Notes: generated by a model not told the origin, from the letters alone. A DNA stretch of 64,000 nt from a virus (IMGVR_UViG_3300010883_024574:1-64000); one strand, 5' to 3'; positions 2,237 through 12,803 are shown, numbered from the stretch's first letter. Translations and numbers: made by a program.

Positions 2237-2435
2237 TTTGATTGGGAAAGAAGTTCGCGCTCTAGATGATGACGATTACGGGCATCGTGTTTTGGTATAT
2301 TATTCAGAAATAGAAAAGTATATTGTTGAAAGCATTTACTGGAACAGTGGAGAGAAGGTAAATCCAAATTACCTCGGAAGCACTATCAGTAAAGATGCTT
2401 TATATAGTAAGTACGATGTAACTTCGGCAAGATAA
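2220..2435 (+). CDS. hypothetical protein
   Basis: ATG at 2220 after AGGTGG; abuts the next gene. Confidence 0.55.
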   Translation: MLDPNSLIGKEVRALDDDDYGHRVLVYYSEIEKYIVESIYWNSGEKVNPNYLGSTISKDALYSKYDVTSAR

Positions 2436-2810
2436 ATGAAGATACTCGTAAATAAACTTTTGCCATTACTATTATTTATCGGATGCGGATACGGCAAGAT
2501 TTATAAAGATCCTGGCAAGGTTTATGAAAAGGGTTTCAAAGCTCTTTCTGAAAGCCCCTGTATAGATGGGACTATCGTAAATATATACGAAGCAGGGTGT
2601 GAAGTGTTCTATTGGGGAGTTGATCCAAATGGCATTATTTTAAAGATGCGCTGTGCTTATGCTCCAAAGGACAGCCTGTGGACTAAGTCAACCTTTTATG
2701 CGGTTCCTAATAATCATTCTATTATTCATTCTAATTGGTTTTTATTTTGTGAGGATAGGCAAGTTAGCCTATACTCTGTCTCGCAAGGAGCTGAGCTAAA
2801 CAATGAATGA
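2436..2810 (+). CDS. putative lipoprotein
   Basis: basic N-terminus, hydrophobic stretch and lipobox-like FIG-C. Confidence 0.6.
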   Translation: MKILVNKLLPLLLFIGCGYGKIYKDPGKVYEKGFKALSESPCIDGTIVNIYEAGCEVFYWGVDPNGIILKMRCAYAPKDSLWTKSTFYAVPNNHSIIHSNWFLFCEDRQVSLYSVSQGAELNNE

Positions 2811-3024
2811 TGACGAAAGATCTGCCCTTAATGACAAAGAAATGCTTTTTACTCTTTTGACTGCTTTTGTCAAAAGGAGTGGAGGAGAAATAAAAATATC
2901 AGAAGATGAAATGGATGCTGTAACAAAGAAGGATATGGTTATGATGTATTATGATAAAGTTGCAAAAGAAATAATTTTATCAACATATATGCTGACCAGC
3001 CCCTTAAGTGATGAGACCTTTTAA
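2803..3024 (+). CDS. hypothetical protein
   Basis: overlapping start, AGGAG upstream. Confidence 0.65.
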   Translation: MNDDERSALNDKEMLFTLLTAFVKRSGGEIKISEDEMDAVTKKDMVMMYYDKVAKEIILSTYMLTSPLSDETF

Positions 3025-3038
3025 ACACTAGGAATATA

Positions 3039-3818
3039 ATGACTGCCAAAACAAACCCAGCATGGAAAGCTATTATAGCAGGACTTAAAGCATGTCCTCA
3101 GACGGACAGAAAGAGCCAATGGGCCGAGATTAGCTTTGATAATATCACCCCCCTCACCGAAGCTTGGAACGCTCTATCTCATAGGCGAAAGATTAAGGCC
3201 ATAAAGGATAAAAGATGGAATCATTATCCGCTGTCCTCTTGGACCCCTGCATCCTCAAAGCGTTATGGGGGAGCAATACAAGAACTTGTTGAATCTATTT
3301 TACTTAAGGATGAAGATGATGCAGAGATACTGAGGAGTCATTCCACTGGTATCTTTGCAATTTTCACCATTGACTTATCTCCCTCCAAAGCTCGCATTAA
3401 GGTTGCAAAAAGAAATATTGCATCAAAAGATACAAGACTAAGAGGAAGGTGTGCAAAGATACTTCCTGTTAAATATATGAAACACTTTGTTAATGACAAT
3501 AACTATGCCATTAGAAGTACCGCTATTCGGAGGGTTGGATTCGACAACTGCTATAGCATGTTTCTTCCTTCTAAAACAACCTTGCAGAGCATGAATACTT
3601 TTTATGGGGGTGTGGGATGGCTTGCCTATCAAGCCATCAGGCGAGCGTCTCTTGACGAAGTGGAGGAACTATTGCCGCTTATGTCTTCGGACACATTCCC
3701 TACCAGACTTGTTGAGTCTATTTTGGCAAAAATCCCAAAAGAAGATATTTTATATTATCTTAATAACGCCAATGTCTCGGAGAGGTCGTCAAAGATAATT
3801 CAGGCCAAACTACGATGA
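3039..3818 (+). CDS. alpha-helical HEAT/LRV-like repeat protein, paralog of 35107, 22696 and 35838
   Basis: S-K-D-x-R-L-R and N-D-x-x-Y-A-I-R repeat pattern; C-terminal half aligns by eye with 35107..35829. Confidence 0.55.
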   Translation: MTAKTNPAWKAIIAGLKACPQTDRKSQWAEISFDNITPLTEAWNALSHRRKIKAIKDKRWNHYPLSSWTPASSKRYGGAIQELVESILLKDEDDAEILRSHSTGIFAIFTIDLSPSKARIKVAKRNIASKDTRLRGRCAKILPVKYMKHFVNDNNYAIRSTAIRRVGFDNCYSMFLPSKTTLQSMNTFYGGVGWLAYQAIRRASLDEVEELLPLMSSDTFPTRLVESILAKIPKEDILYYLNNANVSERSSKIIQAKLR

Positions 3819-3833
3819 TAAGTTGAGGACATT

Positions 3834-4901
3834 ATGATTAAGACTATTGTATGCGACAAAGCAGATTGGCTGGTTAGGTTTATCCTGCCTTCTGATGAAC
3901 TGTTAAAGCTGAATCCAATTATCGCCGGAGGCTCTATGCTGTCAGTGTATCGCGCCATAAGGCTGCATGACACACCTGACAAGTGGGAGGGGCTAAGACG
4001 GGTTTTAGAGCGCAATCCAGCCAAGGCCAAGCTTGATAAGTTTGGCGACATTGATATTTGGTTTAATAAAGATAATCCAATTCATAATGATGGTCACGAA
4101 TACAACTGGTTAATGTCTGACTTAGAAGGTGTGGGAATAGTCGCCAAGGCAGTCGGCCCACTCAGCGACACACCGGGCCTTCTGCCCGGAAATAAGTTAG
4201 GGCTTTATAGGCTAAACAGAGTTAGTCGTTGGGCAAATTCATTCCTTTGTAACACCACCAAGGAGAGCAAGCCTTTGTCTAAAGAGATTCAGTTTATAAA
4301 GAAAGAGTTTTCCTCAGTAAGAAAGCTTCTAGAATCATTTGATTTTATAAACTGTTCTGTAGCATATTTTGATGGAAAGCTTTATTATGATGACAGAATT
4401 GATGAAGCTTTTTCGTCTTTTGAATTAAGATTAAACAACTCAAGTGTATATAGTAAAGACTCCGTTGCTATGAAGGTGTTTAATGCTCTAAGGGCATTTA
4501 AGTATGTTAACAGATATAGCCTTGATTTTTGCGAGCCTCTAACTGAACATATTTTTAAGCTGTATGTTGACTCAAAAGATATAGATTATGATGCTTATAA
4601 AGCTCATGTAATTGAGTTGGAAGAGCATTATGGCAAAACTATTTCTTCTGTAAATACATTAAAAGATATGGTTACTAGCTTTCATGGTACTTTTTTAAAG
4701 TTTTCAAAGATGAAGTATTTTAAAAAAGAATATTCTCTTTTCCTGGTAGACAAAGAACACTTGTTTCCCGGCTTGAAAAAGCTAATAGGGGGAGACAGTC
4801 TGGCTATCAGCAATGAAATCAAACCAAACTATTACAACGCTAACATCAAATGTTATCTAAAGTCCCCTATTAAATTCAAGAGTCAGTTCAAAGTCATTTG
4901 A
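3834..4901 (+). CDS. Pol-beta-fold nucleotidyltransferase-like protein
   Basis: IAGGS...GDIDIWF...IQFI...SFDFINC motif series. Confidence 0.6.
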   Translation: MIKTIVCDKADWLVRFILPSDELLKLNPIIAGGSMLSVYRAIRLHDTPDKWEGLRRVLERNPAKAKLDKFGDIDIWFNKDNPIHNDGHEYNWLMSDLEGVGIVAKAVGPLSDTPGLLPGNKLGLYRLNRVSRWANSFLCNTTKESKPLSKEIQFIKKEFSSVRKLLESFDFINCSVAYFDGKLYYDDRIDEAFSSFELRLNNSSVYSKDSVAMKVFNALRAFKYVNRYSLDFCEPLTEHIFKLYVDSKDIDYDAYKAHVIELEEHYGKTISSVNTLKDMVTSFHGTFLKFSKMKYFKKEYSLFLVDKEHLFPGLKKLIGGDSLAISNEIKPNYYNANIKCYLKSPIKFKSQFKVI

Positions 4902-4902
4902 A

Positions 4903-5103
4903 GTGACCAATCACAAAATGAAGTCCTTAAAAAAGATAGAAAAGCTTGAAGAAAAAAATAGTATTTTAAAGGATCACGCCCGTTCAGAGCTAACAGATGA
5001 AGAGCTTGAAACGGTTATAGGCGGCATGTCAAAAGGGGCATACGATAGGTATGTAATCAAAATTATTAATGAGCATAATTCTTTAAAAATTGGTAATGAA
5101 TAA
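4903..5103 (+). CDS. small peptide with a double-glycine (bacteriocin/Nif11-type) leader motif
   Basis: ELTDEELETVIGG followed by a 25-aa tail; start may be ATG at 4918. Confidence 0.6.
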   Translation: MTNHKMKSLKKIEKLEEKNSILKDHARSELTDEELETVIGGMSKGAYDRYVIKIINEHNSLKIGNE

Positions 5104-5115
5104 CCATATAGAGCA

Positions 5116-6000
5116 ATGAAGAACCTATTACCTTATGAAATATTATCTACTGAAAGTTCTATTAACAATAGGACTTTAGAAAACCTTTATCATAAAGGAC
5201 AGTCTAATATTTGGGATGGAAAAGAAGTTCTATCCTCTTTGATTAATGAGTATGGAGAGACTACTTTATCAAAAGATCAAGTTAAATCAATAGAAAATAT
5301 CTTCTCCGTTATTTTCTGGGGAGAGTATGCCGCATGGAACATATCTTCTGAGCTTGCATTAAAACTTGAGTCTTTTGAGGCTAAAATGGCAGCTACATCA
5401 CAAGCTCATGATGAGGCCAGACACTTCTATGTCATGCGAGATTACCTAAATTACATAGGAGTTGAGCCAAAGCCCTTACCTCGTAACGCCGCAAGAGCAT
5501 TAAATTTTGTGCTGAATACTGATAATTTGGCAAAAAAGCTATTAGGTATGCAGCTAATGGTTGAACCAATAGCTATAACTATTTTCAAACTTGTAATGCA
5601 GAGCAAGATTGACCCTGTATTGTGTAATTTGCTAAAGTTATATGAAATAGACGAGGCGCGACATATTGCGTTGGGAGTCAAATACCTCCCCTCTTTAATA
5701 AAGAATATGAATTATTATGAGGTTATAAACTTGTTTGTTTGGCAGTTACGTCTGATGCTTATCGAGGTTGATGGGTTGAAGGAACTTCAAGGGGATTTTG
5801 AAAACTTAGGCTTCAATATTGACGAAGTATATGCGTTAGCTGAAAACAAGCAATTAGAAGCTGCAAGACTCATGAGTGATGAACTTGGATTGAAATATCC
5901 GCCTTGGGTAATTATGAAAAATGTTGTAAAGATAAAAAAAAATCTAAAGCTTTCTGATAATTTATTCATATCTAATATATTAAATTACATTAATTCATAG
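5116..6000 (+). CDS. ferritin-like diiron protein (AurF/desaturase-like superfamily)
   Basis: E (WGEYAA)...DEARH...E (VEPIA)...DEARH carboxylate-bridged diiron ligand set. Confidence 0.85.
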   Translation: MKNLLPYEILSTESSINNRTLENLYHKGQSNIWDGKEVLSSLINEYGETTLSKDQVKSIENIFSVIFWGEYAAWNISSELALKLESFEAKMAATSQAHDEARHFYVMRDYLNYIGVEPKPLPRNAARALNFVLNTDNLAKKLLGMQLMVEPIAITIFKLVMQSKIDPVLCNLLKLYEIDEARHIALGVKYLPSLIKNMNYYEVINLFVWQLRLMLIEVDGLKELQGDFENLGFNIDEVYALAENKQLEAARLMSDELGLKYPPWVIMKNVVKIKKNLKLSDNLFISNILNYINS

Positions 6001-6009
6001 GAGTATTAG

Positions 6010-6336
6010 ATGGCAATTACAATGACCGATCTTGCTATAGACAGGATTCAAGATTTAATGAAGAAAACACAGTGTGAAGACTCCTATCTAAGAATAGGGT
6101 TAAAAAGTGGGGGATGCTCTGGCTTGTCTTATCATTTTGATTTTACAAAAGAAGCGGAAGAATTTGATAAAGTATTTGAGTTTGAAGCAGTAAAGGTTTG
6201 TATTGATAAAAAATCTTATTTATTTTTAAATGGAATGGAGATTGACTATGAAGAAACTCCTTTTAAATCTGGTATAATGTTAAATGTTCCCAGCGTAACA
6301 AGAACCTGTGGTTGCGGAGAGTCTGTAACCTTTTAG
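6010..6336 (+). CDS. iscA: A-type Fe-S cluster carrier (HesB/IscA family)
   Basis: LRIG..GGCSG.SY and C-terminal TCGCGES motifs. Confidence 0.92.
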   Translation: MAITMTDLAIDRIQDLMKKTQCEDSYLRIGLKSGGCSGLSYHFDFTKEAEEFDKVFEFEAVKVCIDKKSYLFLNGMEIDYEETPFKSGIMLNVPSVTRTCGCGESVTF

Positions 6337-6355
6337 TATTGAGTGGAGATTATAA

Positions 6356-6826
6356 ATGTCTGATGGACATACAGACGCTTGGATGATAACTAGAGAGTTT
6401 GATAAGCGACGAGCGCATGATTATAGGCCGTCTTGGGATGATATATGGTCAAACTTTGCAAAGTCTATAGCAAAGCGTTCTCATGACCCAAAATATAAAG
6501 TTGGTGCAGTAATTGTTACTGATGATAACTCTCAAGTCTTAGCAATAGGCTATAATGGAGATCAAAAAGGCGGGCCAAACAAAAGAGATTCCCTCAAGGC
6601 TGGGGAGTCTGGGTTTATCCATGCAGAATTAAATGCTTTGATAAAATGTGATTATAACTTTCCTAAAGATAAAAAATTATATGTGACCCTATCTCCATGT
6701 GTTGCTTGTGCAAAAGCCATAATAAATGCCGGAATAAAACATGTGACTTATATAACAAAATATACCAACGAAGGTATAGAGTTGCTTGAGAAACATGGGA
6801 TAAGCGTAACAAGGTATCAGTGTTAA
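6356..6826 (+). CDS. dCMP deaminase (ComEB-like)
   Basis: KVGAVIV, GYNG, HAELNA, TLSPCVAC. Confidence 0.92.
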   Translation: MSDGHTDAWMITREFDKRRAHDYRPSWDDIWSNFAKSIAKRSHDPKYKVGAVIVTDDNSQVLAIGYNGDQKGGPNKRDSLKAGESGFIHAELNALIKCDYNFPKDKKLYVTLSPCVACAKAIINAGIKHVTYITKYTNEGIELLEKHGISVTRYQC

Positions 6827-6827
6827 A

Positions 6828-7178
6828 ATGAAATTAAACAGTATTCGTATTTCTACAGCCCTTGGTATAGTTGGGCAAAATGGAATTTTTTCAAATCAAG
6901 GTTTCAAATCTGGTGATACAGTCCTGTCTCTAACAGGAGAAGTGTCGCCTAACCCTACCCGTACCTCTATAAAGGTTGCCGAGAAAGAACATATTGAGGA
7001 TAGTGTTGGAAACTTTATTAATCATAACTGCAATCCTTCTTGCAAGATTGATGGAATCAAAGTTATTGCTCTAAAAAATATAAAAAATGGAGAAGAAATA
7101 ACTTTTGACTATTCTAAAAATGAAGATAAATTAGCAAACCCCTTTATATGCTCCTGCTGTAACAGGCTTGTTTCTTAA
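6828..7178 (+). CDS. SET-domain protein (putative methyltransferase)
   Basis: GIFS, FINHNCNPSC, GEEITFDY and a short post-SET CxC. Confidence 0.88.
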   Translation: MKLNSIRISTALGIVGQNGIFSNQGFKSGDTVLSLTGEVSPNPTRTSIKVAEKEHIEDSVGNFINHNCNPSCKIDGIKVIALKNIKNGEEITFDYSKNEDKLANPFICSCCNRLVS

Positions 7179-7190
7179 CACGGAGAAAAA

Positions 7191-8834
7191 ATGTGCGGAT
7201 TTGTAACCTATCTTGGCTCTAAATATAGTAGAAAAGACTTAGAGCCTCATGTTAACAAGATTCAATATCGGGGGCCAGATGGCTCTACATATAAAAAAGT
7301 ATCTTCAAATATTTCCTTCTTCTTTCATAGGCTTGCAATAATTGATGCATCTGAATCTGGAGATCAACCATTATATCTTCCAGAGGATTTGAATATTTCC
7401 ATTATTTGTAACGGAGAGATTTATAATTATAAAGAATTAATTTCAAAATATAACTTTAAAACAAACTCTGGATCTGATTGCGAAGTTATTTTGCATTTAT
7501 ATAAAAAGTTTGGTATAGAGAAAACTCTCAATATGTTAGATGGAGTATTCGCCTTTACCTTGTATGATGGAAATAAGGATATACTATATGCAGCAAGAGA
7601 TCCTTTCGGAGTCAGACCAGCCTTCTTTGGAGAGACCTATGATGGTGAGTTCATGTTGTCATCAGAAGCAAAGGCTATAAGCGATCTTTGTGATCTTATA
7701 TATCCATTTCCTCCCGGAACATGGTGGTCATCAGACGAGCCAAATGTGTTTTTATCATATCACTCTATCCTAAACATGAAAGAAAAGGCCTCATCAGAAG
7801 AAGAGATATGCAAAAACATACGACGAAGCTTAGTCGCAGCTGTTGAAAAAAGATTAATGTCGGAAAGAGAAATAGGATGCTTATTATCAGGAGGCTTAGA
7901 CTCAAGCCTTATAGCCGCCTTGGTGTCTCATATGCTAAAGGGCTATAGACTGATAGACGATGAGTGGAAATTATTTGAAGATCTGAAGTGTTCAACTCTT
8001 ATCAAAACCTTTGGCATAGGGATGAGCGGAAGCCCAGACCTAAAGTATGCAAAAAAAGTTGCCAAGTGGATTGGCAGTGACCATAATGAGGTCAGGTTAA
8101 CAAAATTAGATTTTTTAAATGCTATAGACGAAGTTATATATAAAATCGAATCATATGACACCACTACCGTCAGAGCCAGCATTGGAAACTATCTTGTATC
8201 AAAGTATATAAAGGAAAATACAGATTGTAAAGTCATTTTTAATGGAGACGGAAGCGATGAAGTATGCTGTGGATATGTTTACAATGCAAACGCTCCAACT
8301 CCAGGCGAATTACAATTAGAATCTCTTAGACTATTAGATGAAATTTATATGTTTGATGTACTAAGATCAGATAGAAGCATAAGCTCTAATGGGCTGGAGG
8401 CAAGAACACCTTTTCTAGACAAAAGCTTCGTCAGCCTATACTTATCTATACCTCCAGCTATGAAGACTTTTGATAAAACAAATAAGATTGAAAAATATTT
8501 GCTAAGAAAAGCTTTCGAGAAAGATAATTTATTGCCGCCAGAAGTTCTTTGGAGACATAAGTGTGCCTTTTCAGATGGAGTAAGCAGTATAAAAAATTCT
8601 TGGCACAAATCTATTAAGGAGTTTGTGGACAACATCGTAACTGATGATGAGTTCTGTAAGGCTTCGGAAGACATTAATCATTGTAAGCCTTTACTCAAAG
8701 AAAGTTATTATTATAGAAAGATCTTTAACAACTTGTTTCCTGGGCAGCATCATTTGATTGCTCATTTTTGGATGCCAAAGTGGACAGATGCTATAGACCC
8801 CTCTGCTCGCGAGCTTGGAGGCTATAAAGAATGA
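7191..8834 (+). CDS. asnB: asparagine synthetase B (glutamine-hydrolysing)
   Basis: N-terminal MCG, RGPD, NGEIYN, SDCEV, LSGGLDSS, ESYDTTTVRAS, GDGSDE, EARTPFLD, DPSAR. Confidence 0.95.
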   Translation: MCGFVTYLGSKYSRKDLEPHVNKIQYRGPDGSTYKKVSSNISFFFHRLAIIDASESGDQPLYLPEDLNISIICNGEIYNYKELISKYNFKTNSGSDCEVILHLYKKFGIEKTLNMLDGVFAFTLYDGNKDILYAARDPFGVRPAFFGETYDGEFMLSSEAKAISDLCDLIYPFPPGTWWSSDEPNVFLSYHSILNMKEKASSEEEICKNIRRSLVAAVEKRLMSEREIGCLLSGGLDSSLIAALVSHMLKGYRLIDDEWKLFEDLKCSTLIKTFGIGMSGSPDLKYAKKVAKWIGSDHNEVRLTKLDFLNAIDEVIYKIESYDTTTVRASIGNYLVSKYIKENTDCKVIFNGDGSDEVCCGYVYNANAPTPGELQLESLRLLDEIYMFDVLRSDRSISSNGLEARTPFLDKSFVSLYLSIPPAMKTFDKTNKIEKYLLRKAFEKDNLLPPEVLWRHKCAFSDGVSSIKNSWHKSIKEFVDNIVTDDEFCKASEDINHCKPLLKESYYYRKIFNNLFPGQHHLIAHFWMPKWTDAIDPSARELGGYKE

Positions 8835-8865
8835 TAGACATTATTTATCATTATTAGGAGTTTGT

Positions 8866-9444
8866 ATGAACTATAAAGAAATTGAATATAAATATTGGAC
8901 GAAAGACCTGTCTAAAGAAGAATTCTTAACCAAAGAAGAATTCTTAAAAAGAATTGAAAGTGTCGTGTCTAAAGAACCTGACTGGGAAATGCCAGAGGTT
9001 ATATATGTTGTATCCTGCGATGATTATTATACCAAAGAAAATGGGAGTGGAACTGACTTTGTACGCTTTAGAAAAGGCGGAGGAAGATACGAGTTGACCC
9101 TGAAGAGAAAAGAAAAAGAAAATGTTGTCAGAACAGAGATAAATCTAAATGTTACTAACAATGAAGATTCGGCTATAGTAGAGTTTTTAACATTAAGTGG
9201 CTACAGCTTGGCTTTCCAGGTTTACAAGGAGGCTTGGATTTGGAACTTTAATGACTGTGACGTGTCATATTATACCCTTTCAGACGGAAGAAGTGTTATT
9301 GAATTAGAAGCAATTAATTATTCCACAGTTAGAGGCGGTGTTGCTGCTATAAACAAATGGGAAAAAATGCTTAAGCTGAAAACACTAGATAAAGAACCTA
9401 GGTCATTATATGAGATCTTTACAGAAGAAAGAACGATTGAGTGA
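8866..9444 (+). CDS. CYTH-domain (triphosphate tunnel) enzyme
   Basis: EIEYKY (ExExK), VRFR, LTLK, RTEIN, IELE; AGGAG RBS before ATG 8866. Confidence 0.8.
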   Translation: MNYKEIEYKYWTKDLSKEEFLTKEEFLKRIESVVSKEPDWEMPEVIYVVSCDDYYTKENGSGTDFVRFRKGGGRYELTLKRKEKENVVRTEINLNVTNNEDSAIVEFLTLSGYSLAFQVYKEAWIWNFNDCDVSYYTLSDGRSVIELEAINYSTVRGGVAAINKWEKMLKLKTLDKEPRSLYEIFTEERTIE

Positions 9445-9743
9445 TTAAAGATAATGTTATAGAGGTTTTGTACAGATCCCTTCGTGACTCTATATCAAAT
9501 CAGATAGCCTGTGTTGATTTTGATGAGAAGAGAAGTACAATATACCTAACCTTAAAGGGAGAGGCTATGCCATATCCATATGATCATTCGCTTGATGATG
9601 AAAATAAGATTTATTTTAATGGGTCTATATGGAAAATTAATAAAAATGGTATAGAAAATATGTCTGAAAGATCCGATAGCACAGAAGGTCTTAGCCGGAA
9701 ACCTTGGGCTAAAAGATTTCTTAAATATTGTAAATTAATTTAG
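9441..9743 (+). CDS. hypothetical protein
   Basis: GTGA overlap with the upstream stop. Confidence 0.6.
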   Translation: MIKDNVIEVLYRSLRDSISNQIACVDFDEKRSTIYLTLKGEAMPYPYDHSLDDENKIYFNGSIWKINKNGIENMSERSDSTEGLSRKPWAKRFLKYCKLI

Positions 9744-9753
9744 TGAGTAAAAT

Positions 9754-10005
9754 ATGACTGATACAGAGTTTATAACTAGGCTGAAAATTTCAAGCATCGT
9801 TGAGAATGACGATGGAACCAGCACACTTAATTTTGATTTAAATGATGAATTTATAGAATGGTTTAAAGAAAGAGAGGGTTTGAAAAGATTTTCTCACAAA
9901 AGGTTTCAGAAGGTAATTGCAGAGGCTATAAGAGATTACGCCAAGAAAGAAGATAAAAACTTTACGGGAGTAATTGGAAACATTGTCTTGGAAGAGAGCA
10001 CATAG
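9754..10005 (+). CDS. hypothetical phage protein
   Basis: ORF; ENDDGTS-type beta-hairpin start. Confidence 0.7.
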   Translation: MTDTEFITRLKISSIVENDDGTSTLNFDLNDEFIEWFKEREGLKRFSHKRFQKVIAEAIRDYAKKEDKNFTGVIGNIVLEEST

Positions 10006-11980: not shown

Positions 11981-12703
11981 ATGATTAAATTGCTTGGTAG
12001 TATCCCAAACAAAATTGCTATTGCTGTATCAGGCGGGCCTGATAGCATGGCGGCTCTTAATTTCCTCCGTAACGGGGGTAAGAGAGAGGTCTTGGCCCTG
12101 CACTTCAATCATGGCACAGGAAGGCACTCAGTGGAGGCAGAGGCCCTGCTACAGTGTTATTGTGAAGACAATGGAGTACCCCTTGTTGTGGGCCAGTTGT
12201 CCAGAGGTAAGTTAAAAGAAGAGTCTAAAGAAGAATTTTGGAGAAATGAAAGATATTCTTTCTTTGGAGATTATCTGCTGGGGCCTTTCTCACAGCTGAT
12301 GCAGCCTTCAGAGCGTAGAAGGATTAATGCTTATCAGATTGAGTATGACCTTCTTGCGGATTTTTATTATTCTAATCCACCAATTATAACCTGTCATCAT
12401 CTTGATGATGCAGTAGAGACTTGGATCTTTACCTCCTTGCATGGCAACTCGATGCTTATTCCATACAAACGAGATAACTTTATTCGACCCTTTCTATCTA
12501 CAAGAAAGGCCGAGCTTACTGATTGGTGTGAGAATAAAAGGATTCCATACATTATTGATCCAAGCAATGAGGATACTTCTTATATGCGAAACTTCATTAG
12601 GCACACCTTATTGCCAAACGCTCTAAGGGTAAATCCTGGGCTTCACAAGGTTGTTAGAAAGAGGGTGGAAAAAGCATACAGAGAAAGTGTAGACCTTATC
12701 TGA
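11981..12703 (+). CDS. tilS: tRNA(Ile)-lysidine synthetase, minimal catalytic domain
   Basis: AVSGGPDS PP-loop, HFNHG, R..RY, HHLDD.VET, RPFL, DPSN, RNFIRH. Confidence 0.92.
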   Translation: MIKLLGSIPNKIAIAVSGGPDSMAALNFLRNGGKREVLALHFNHGTGRHSVEAEALLQCYCEDNGVPLVVGQLSRGKLKEESKEEFWRNERYSFFGDYLLGPFSQLMQPSERRRINAYQIEYDLLADFYYSNPPIITCHHLDDAVETWIFTSLHGNSMLIPYKRDNFIRPFLSTRKAELTDWCENKRIPYIIDPSNEDTSYMRNFIRHTLLPNALRVNPGLHKVVRKRVEKAYRESVDLI

Positions 12704-12717
12704 TAAATGACTACAAT

Positions 12718-12803
12718 GGGGATGTGGCGGAATTGGTATACGCAGCAGACTTAAAATCTGTCGGTCAAAGACCTTGTGGGTTCGAGTCCCACCATCCCTA
12801 CCA
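12718..12803 (+). tRNA. tRNA-Leu (anticodon UAA) with encoded CCA
   Basis: GGGGATG/CATCCCT acceptor, GCAGA-CTTAAAA-TCTGT anticodon arm, long variable arm, GTGGG-TTCGAGT-CCCAC T-arm, ACCA end. Confidence 0.97.

Follow-up and report, generated by a model that had tools for sequence, protein, structure and literature searches.

Double-glycine-leader peptides encoded by large marine phages, and the accessory genes beside one of them

What does a large marine phage gain from a small peptide that carries a double-glycine (GG) leader, and do the enzyme genes packed closely behind its gene act on it? The locus that raises this question lies at positions 4,903–8,834 of IMGVR_UViG_3300010883_024574:1-64000, a viral sequence of 64,000 nucleotides. 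This whole stretch, hereafter the window, opens an IMG/VR viral record of 86,248 bp (CheckV completeness estimate, 26%) and covers its first 64 kb. The peptide gene is followed, all on the plus strand, by genes for a diiron protein, IscA, a deaminase, a SET-domain protein, and AsnB; 12 nt separate the peptide stop codon from the diiron start, and the subsequent gaps are 9, 19, 1, and 12 nt. A first-pass annotation, made from the sequence alone, had read this block as a candidate system for a ribosomally synthesized peptide that is modified post-translationally (RiPP). When the sequence was re-read, all of the open reading frames (ORFs), motifs, coordinates, and gaps that it claimed were present, but the system itself dissolved. 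We conclude that the peptide gene belongs to a family of marine-phage GG-leader peptides that had not been described before, and that the block, far from being one system, strings together accessory genes that were each gained and lost independently. The gene is real, its leader module fits the established consensus and is the most conserved part of the family, and no enzyme or transporter is linked to it.

Double-glycine leaders are an address tag for peptidase-ABC (ATP-binding cassette) exporters. The leader consensus of substrates of peptidase-containing ABC transporters (PCATs) is LSxxELxxIxGG, with −12, −7, −4, −2, and −1 as the defining positions, and it is recognised by C39 peptidase domains. 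The window peptide contains the module ELTDEELETVIGG, within which LTDEELETVIGG (4,990–5,025) matches the consensus L(−12), S/T(−11), xx, E(−8), L(−7), xx, I/V(−4), x, G(−2), G(−1). The regular expression L[ST]..[EQD]L..[IV].GG matched once in the six-frame translation of the window versus 0.007 matches expected per codon-shuffled window; the motif is therefore more than a chance occurrence. The ORF has two possible start codons, of which the public collection's gene caller chose the ATG at 4,918 (61 amino acids [aa]). The ratio of non-synonymous to synonymous substitution rates (dN/dS) was well below 1 in both the leader half and the core half, indicating purifying selection on both sides of the GG and hence a real coding gene.

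A word-indexed search with the peptide returned one relative only. A profile search over 1.84 billion representatives recovered 23 small proteins, and scans of IMG/VR and metagenome contigs added some 30 further non-redundant peptide loci. The resulting family has 44 non-redundant members, all from metagenomes or viral contigs. It is spread over related marine phages of about 190–255 kb, and the gene is single-copy per phage genome. When the peptide profile was run against five bacterial genomes with diiron homologues there was no match, and among 301 genomes of one bacterial phylum there was one spurious match, inside an 876-aa frame; neither outcome says anything about the true host. PHROGs holds no family for the peptide, and leads from the ESM Atlas, all below 0.9, pointed to Type-A lantibiotic and Blp-like clusters. 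The searchable literature on double-glycine peptides of phages and cyanophages contained no description of such a family, which is limited evidence of novelty.

The 44 members were aligned on the GG, with some leader positions serving as alignment anchors, and in this alignment 11 of the 13 leader positions carried at least 3 bits. The leader consensus, E(−13)L(−12)[T/S]D[E/D][E/Q]L(−7)E x V(−4)[I/V]G G, is nearly invariant from −13 to −1 except at −5, and the nearly invariant positions include exactly those of the classical LSxxELxxIxGG leader, a correspondence that is established knowledge. Taken with the preceding result, this bears out the claim of the first-pass annotation that the peptide has a GG leader. 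Conservation does not stop at the GG. The conserved unit is a 29-residue module, ELTDE(E/Q)LExV(I/V)GG-(M)SxxxFxx(Y/W)xxx(L/I)(I/L)NE, in which +1 is M, A, or Q, +2 is S, +6 is F (34/44), +9 is Y or W in all 44 members, +13 and +14 are aliphatic, +15 is N (42/44), and +16 is E; conservation decays beyond +17. The leader is more conserved than the core, which still holds six to eight conserved positions and is not hypervariable. The contrast between leader and core expected of a RiPP precursor is seen only in part.

The cores are short (median 26 aa, range 18–60) and hydrophilic (mean hydropathy [GRAVY] of −0.96), with a net charge of about +1 and hydrophobic runs of at most four residues; Cys is absent from 31 of the 44. 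With these statistics they look like soluble, partner-binding helices and not like pore formers. In the AlphaFold2 (AF2) model of the window peptide, the two longer helices (Table 1) flank a third, at residues 32–38, and a loop at the GG, with no confident packing between them (predicted template modelling score, pTM, 0.36). The N-terminal extension of the window type, a 25-aa helix, is missing or different in many members: sequences N-terminal of −13 are unrelated from one member to another, and some members begin right at the module. Several members (L110, L117, L123, P0136, and P0137) lie directly downstream of tRNA genes, and there the frame upstream of the leader resembles translated tRNA (…RVRLPPSPP…, …GSNSVGQSSVLIKRRSRVQVP…). 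A separate subfamily (L109:2118-2558, L118, and L119:3812-4252; GGASR..F..WAA..YN.HRK) bears a long Cys-rich C-terminal extension (CYYSC...CDC), and downstream of it recurs a gene of about 160 aa whose product has a hydrophobic N terminus.

To which class of GG leader does the peptide belong? The bacteriocin-type signal model TIGR01847 was passed marginally by the window peptide (15.8 bits versus a cutoff of 15.7) and matched by 11 of the 23 profile-search proteins (E ≤ 0.1), and the GG-leader family NF038167 gave sub-threshold matches in 15 of these 23. The Nif11 model TIGR03798 scored below its cutoff (13.2 versus 32.3), and the NHLP model TIGR03793 gave weak matches in only two of the 23 (E ≤ 0.1). 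The earlier view that the leader is of a type shared by class II bacteriocins and Nif11/NHLP precursors thus stands, narrowly, for the double-glycine model and falls for Nif11. Judged by its motif, the peptide belongs with the double-glycine leaders of the class II bacteriocin and pheromone type, and it fails the Nif11 and NHLP models.

The likeness to class II bacteriocins and pheromones (ComC/BlpC type) covers L(−12), S/T(−11), E/Q(−8), L(−7), V(−4), G(−2), and G(−1), the short cargo, the lack of a Cys requirement and of a modifying enzyme, and a score that reaches the TIGR01847 cutoff. Unlike those peptides, the phage peptide comes from lytic-type large marine phages and has no transporter, immunity, or regulator gene nearby; its cargo is not membrane-active in character but hydrophilic, it is conserved across distant members, and some of the peptides carry a long N-terminal extension or are fused to a further domain. 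Nif11/NHLP precursors such as the prochlorosins of marine cyanobacteria, whose leaders end in an ELSDEELExVxGG-type sequence, share with it this leader end, the occurrence of some long N-terminal domains, and the marine habitat. They differ in that the phage peptide is accompanied by no LanM or other maturase and has a core without a Cys/Ser/Thr pattern. A third comparison, with arbitrium, would apply only if the peptide is exported, in which case both would be small phage-encoded peptides released from infected cells. Arbitrium precursors carry a Sec signal, are processed extracellularly, and have a cognate phage receptor gene, whereas no receptor gene was identified here. In one lineage only (L095:3349-4605, also L096–L099 and L097/L106), a Sulfotransfer_2 gene (PF03567, 29.7 bits) runs with its 3′ end into the peptide gene, and a gene for an FKBP-type peptidyl-prolyl isomerase follows. 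This arrangement recalls RaxX, a sulfated GG-leader peptide, with RaxST and RaxB.

We searched for the machinery that would process such a peptide. No C39 peptidase domain (PF03412) was present in the 86-kb record, and none in five records from related phages, of which two are complete; control genomes were matched. Pfam and NCBIfam scans of the neighbouring genes detected no RiPP recognition element (RRE) and no known RiPP maturase domain; the matches were to the diiron, IscA, deaminase, SET, AsnB, and CYTH families only. The caveat already attached to the first-pass annotation, that the window holds neither a C39 transporter nor an RRE protein, agrees with these scans, and for C39 the absence extends to the whole record. 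Nor does any enzyme gene recur beside the peptide across loci. Since the phage encodes no C39 transporter, export through a transporter of the host, or interference with it, stays a live option.

The reading that we favour, with about even confidence, is that of an unmodified GG-leader peptide processed and exported by a peptidase-ABC transporter of the host. The infected cell would make the peptide and leave it unmodified. The host transporter would recognise the leader helix through its C39 peptidase domain and cut after the GG, and a soluble helix of about 25 residues would be set free outside the cell. Its role there would be that of a signal or interference factor that binds some target protein, and it would not form membrane pores. 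A nearly invariant address tag, the lack of an exporter, and a conserved soluble cargo together suggest that these phages either secrete the peptide through host machinery or target that machinery. If true, this would be a new kind of phage–host or phage–phage interaction in the ocean; we know of no phage that uses the GG-leader/PCAT route. That a whole group of large marine phages releases such a helix through a host exporter, for communication between phages or manipulation of neighbouring cells, is a tentative and somewhat unlikely extension.

Several observations weigh against export. TIGR01847 was passed by just 0.1 bit, and all other GG-family models scored below cutoff. Cleavage and export after the GG are predicted from the leader motif, and conservation of the post-GG helix would be expected of any small folded or partner-binding protein and by itself is no sign of secretion. 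At L094:3578-3784 (identical in L104) no ATG, GTG, or TTG precedes the leader, and the candidate starts are only a V within the leader and an M directly after the GG; the frame there may use a non-canonical start, may have decayed, or may serve to express only the core. In other members (L100:3791-4093, L102:3779-4099, L111, L126, and P0142), the module is fused in frame to the C terminus of a small SH3-like domain of the MKVGDLV type. There is no intervening start codon, and the architecture recurs in diverged sequences; it fits a long leader but equally an intracellular protein of two parts. The Gad2-like candidate anti-defence gene that precedes the peptide gene hints at an intracellular counter-defence context. 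Finally, as a point against the independence of the genes, the longest contig listed is 13,232 bp both for peptide P0144 (of the L094 type) and for the diiron homologue P0020, so that a pairing of peptide and diiron genes may recur within the clade.

The main rival is that the product is an intracellular small helical protein, or a C-terminal effector tail, that acts in anti-defence or host takeover by binding a host protein through its conserved F/Y/L/I/N face, is never exported, and resembles a GG leader by convergence. It would account for a conserved unit that spans both sides of the GG (−13 to +16), the in-frame SH3-like fusions, the Gad2-like nucleotidyltransferase (NTase) as the constant neighbour in the clade, the hydrophilic core, and the zero count of transporters in the phage genomes searched. 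Longer fused forms of the module (≥197 aa) were not found, which is weak evidence. However, at least seven positions match the PCAT leader consensus and end in an invariant GG, and convergence to this extent is hard to achieve; the AF2 model shows no confidently packed hairpin; and the length of the post-GG segment is typical of GG-leader cargo. We consider this rival unlikely on balance, if the most serious one.

A peptide that jams the C39 peptidase or ABC transporter of the host, and so stops the secretion of host bacteriocins, RiPPs, or pheromones during infection, would draw on the same leader evidence as the exported peptide that we favour. Such a decoy fits a phage without a transporter and a leader that is better conserved than the core. 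A pure leader decoy would have no need of conserved core positions, among them the nearly invariant Asn at +15, and no precedent was found in the searchable literature. A decoy role is, in our judgement, distinctly improbable.

In the remaining rival, the peptide is a RiPP precursor, and the diiron enzyme encoded next to it would oxidise its core before export, perhaps aided by IscA, SET, or AsnB. It required a test of the supposed peptide–diiron pair, and the co-occurrence check proposed along with that claim was run. By tblastn, the diiron gene was present at only two of the approximately 30 non-redundant peptide loci, the window and L002, a 222-kb contig. Conversely, diiron homologues were found in ten IMG/VR phage contigs, and the order peptide–diiron–IscA was kept only in L002 (79% identity); the other nine (46%–50% identity) have unrelated neighbours and no peptide nearby. 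A loose GG-leader regular expression run over 89 other diiron loci (9 phage and 80 bacterial, about 0.9 Mb, the bacterial loci being checked within about 6 kb) gave one spurious match, within a 545-aa ORF.

Gene order within the clade points the same way. The window and L002 share the order 355-aa gene, peptide, diiron, IscA, deaminase, SET, AsnB, and CYTH; L103 has the 355-aa gene, peptide, and deaminase, and L094/L104 have the 355-aa gene, peptide, SET, AsnB, and CYTH. Whole genomes scatter likewise. The complete genomes G002 and G004 carry the peptide but neither diiron nor IscA gene, and complete G008 carries diiron without peptide or IscA. In complete G006, both peptide and diiron genes are present, at least 8 kb apart, and IscA is absent; in G007 (75% complete), diiron and IscA genes lie 167 kb apart and the peptide was not found. 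Clade synteny and whole-genome distribution together show that the two genes became neighbours in the window by chance, as cassettes were locally gained and lost, and that they are not a conserved pair. Of the outcomes that the first-pass annotation had named as refuting it, two were thus seen: peptide homologues occur without the diiron gene, and conservation runs on past the GG into the core, although the leader stays the better conserved part. A complex prediction for the diiron protein with the peptide scored 0.00 and gave no verdict, and we count it neither for nor against.

A RiPP precursor is thus very improbable. In its favour, the two genes lie side by side in the window and L002 and may meet again on the 13,232-bp contig, and oxidation of the conserved aromatic residues at +6 and +9 is conceivable. 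Against it, each gene is found without the other across the phage and bacterial loci compared, bacterial diiron genes adjoin TetR regulators, the diiron protein resembles ADO, R2lox, and RNR-R2, the structural matches listed include no peptide-modifying enzyme, the scans detected no RRE domain, and AsnB is of the housekeeping type. The RiPP annotation is tempting but wrong, and we have removed it. The argument from close packing fares no better: the spacing had been described correctly, but nearly all long ORFs (≥150 aa) elsewhere in the window are also on the plus strand, so that co-orientation and small gaps at 4,903–8,834 do not tell whether these genes work together. In a phage genome, genes packed closely in one direction are no evidence of an operon-level system.

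Table 1. Peptide gene, its parts, and the genes around it in the window
Feature	Position	Strand	Basis
355-aa nucleotidyltransferase-fold protein, Gad2-like	3834–4901	+	ESM Atlas similarity, synteny; no Pfam match
Small peptide gene	4903 (GTG) or 4918 (ATG)–5103	+	ORF; 66 aa from GTG, 61 aa from ATG
Variable N-terminal helical extension before leader module	4918–4986	+	AF2 helix, residues 2–26; low information upstream of −13
Double-glycine leader module ELTDEELETVIGG, positions −13 to −1	4987–5025	+	TIGR01847, regular expression, conservation
25-aa post-GG segment MSKGAYDRYVIKIINEHNSLKIGNE	5026–5100	+	Hydrophilic amphipathic helix; AF2 helix, residues 44–64; position-wise conservation
Stand-alone ferritin-like diiron (or Mn/Fe) carboxylate oxidase, 294 aa	5116–6000	+	Two DEARH motifs (E100/H103, E180/H183), fold, ligands
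A-type Fe-S carrier (IscA/SufA/ErpA family)	6010–6336	+	TIGR00049, 107.2 bits versus cutoff 58.8
dCMP deaminase	6356–6826	+	PF00383, 3.5e-21; phrog_174 dCMP deaminase, 1.5e-45
Minimal SET-domain protein, 116 aa	6828–7178	+	PF00856, 42.8 bits versus cutoff 22.4
Glutamine-hydrolysing asparagine synthase B (AsnB)	7191–8834	+	NF006949 equivalog, 512.6 bits versus cutoff 499; N-terminal MCGF (Cys nucleophile)

What, then, is the diiron protein? Its metal ligands E70, E100, H103, E150, E180, and H183 are invariant in 32 homologous sequences and form the pattern E, ExxH, E, ExxH on four core helices, as in the ADO/R2lox/R2 superfamily. The AF2 model (mean confidence, pLDDT, 85.9) gave nearly tied structural matches to cyanobacterial aldehyde-deformylating oxygenase (ADO; VIA Z = 24.2; root-mean-square deviation [rmsd] 2.4 over 212 residues) and R2-like ligand-binding oxidase (R2lox; Z = 23.3; rmsd 2.5 over 248), followed by RNR R2 (Z = 22.6–23.3) and methane monooxygenase hydroxylase (MMOH; Z = 22.4). 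The best PDB sequence matches were to R2lox (E = 2e-5 with a profile). The specific family models all scored below cutoff (AurF [PF11583], 25.3 versus 29.6; R2lox NF006200, 23 versus 194), and PHROGs holds no family for the protein. It shares with ADO and R2lox the ferritin-like four-helix core and the 4-carboxylate/2-His metal site, but differs in its low sequence identity (13%–18%) and sub-cutoff family scores, and RNR-R2 and MMOH score about equally.

More than 1,700 homologues were found at E ≤ 1e-3. The GTDB genome collection contained 392 matching stretches, mostly in metagenome-assembled genomes of Myxococcota. The commonest bacterial neighbour (L013–L092) is a TetR-family regulator directly upstream, at about 20 of 59 loci, which suggests that the two genes form a unit that responds to a small molecule or lipid. 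On the strength of the structural matches and these TetR neighbours, the protein is probably an ADO/R2lox-like oxidase that acts on a hydrophobic small molecule. The ferritin-like family that it represents is large and uncharacterised, is common in Myxococcota, where the gene lies behind TetR, recurs in marine phages, and merits functional study; the searchable literature held no relevant description of a phage R2lox.

IscA, the dCMP deaminase, the SET protein, and AsnB are ordinary, independent auxiliary genes. For the deaminase, IscA, and AsnB the first-pass annotation had itself warned of this, and the family models agree (Table 1). It had also cited AsnB homologues that amidate or cyclise some RiPPs; the AsnB of the window fell far below the models for lasso cyclase (NF033535, 143.9 versus 525) and macrolactam cyclase (NF033561, 44.6 versus 300). 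Among the peptide loci, SET is present in the window's clade only, and both SET and IscA are unlinked to the peptide outside that narrow clade; PHROGs holds no family for the SET protein. A terminator-like hairpin (a 9-bp stem, then a T run) lies at 6,310–6,340, at the very end of IscA, and would fit diiron–IscA as a separate inserted cassette. The count of terminators in the region was not above chance; in a scan of 2,400–10,000, neither promoter nor terminator counts rose above shuffled controls.

The one neighbour that stays constant beside the peptide in the clade (the window, L002, L094, L103, and L104) is the 355-aa gene upstream, and a distant copy of it follows the peptide in L113. Its product has an ESM Atlas feature similarity of 0.96–0.97 to phage clusters in which 63%–84% of members carry PF26128 Gad2, and structural rows of the same resource point to PolyA_pol/CCA NTases. 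The proposed likeness to Gad2 comes from this ESM Atlas similarity and these structural rows. Gad2 itself, an anti-Gabija protein of phages, is predicted to have an NTase domain (bioRxiv 10.1101/2023.05.01.538930). We also considered a programmed frameshift that would join the 355-aa gene to the peptide and rejected it, as the peptide is in frame +1 in the window but in frame −1 in L094.

The source of the window is an uncultured large marine phage, in which 4,903–8,834 lies within a plastic region with all genes on the plus strand. DNA of the window was seen again in marine and seawater metagenomes from several studies, with no RNA dataset among those listed. A GenBank phage collection gave zero matches when queried by blastn and tblastn, whether with the region itself, with the diiron protein, with two of the peptides, or with two related loci; GroEL alone found distant phage homologues, at 48% identity or less, and no cultured relative or host emerged. 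Two further genes of the window were noted. A TilS-like PP-loop ATPase (PF01171, 3.1e-34) is encoded at 11,981–12,803, immediately upstream of tRNA-Leu(TAA), the sole tRNA gene of the window. At 2,436–2,810 lies a 124-aa lipoprotein-like gene (CGYG...SESPC.DGT) that recurs near both diiron and peptide loci (L002, L004, L005, L095, L097, L103, and L117), and the contigs that carry it thereby form one broad group of related marine phages.

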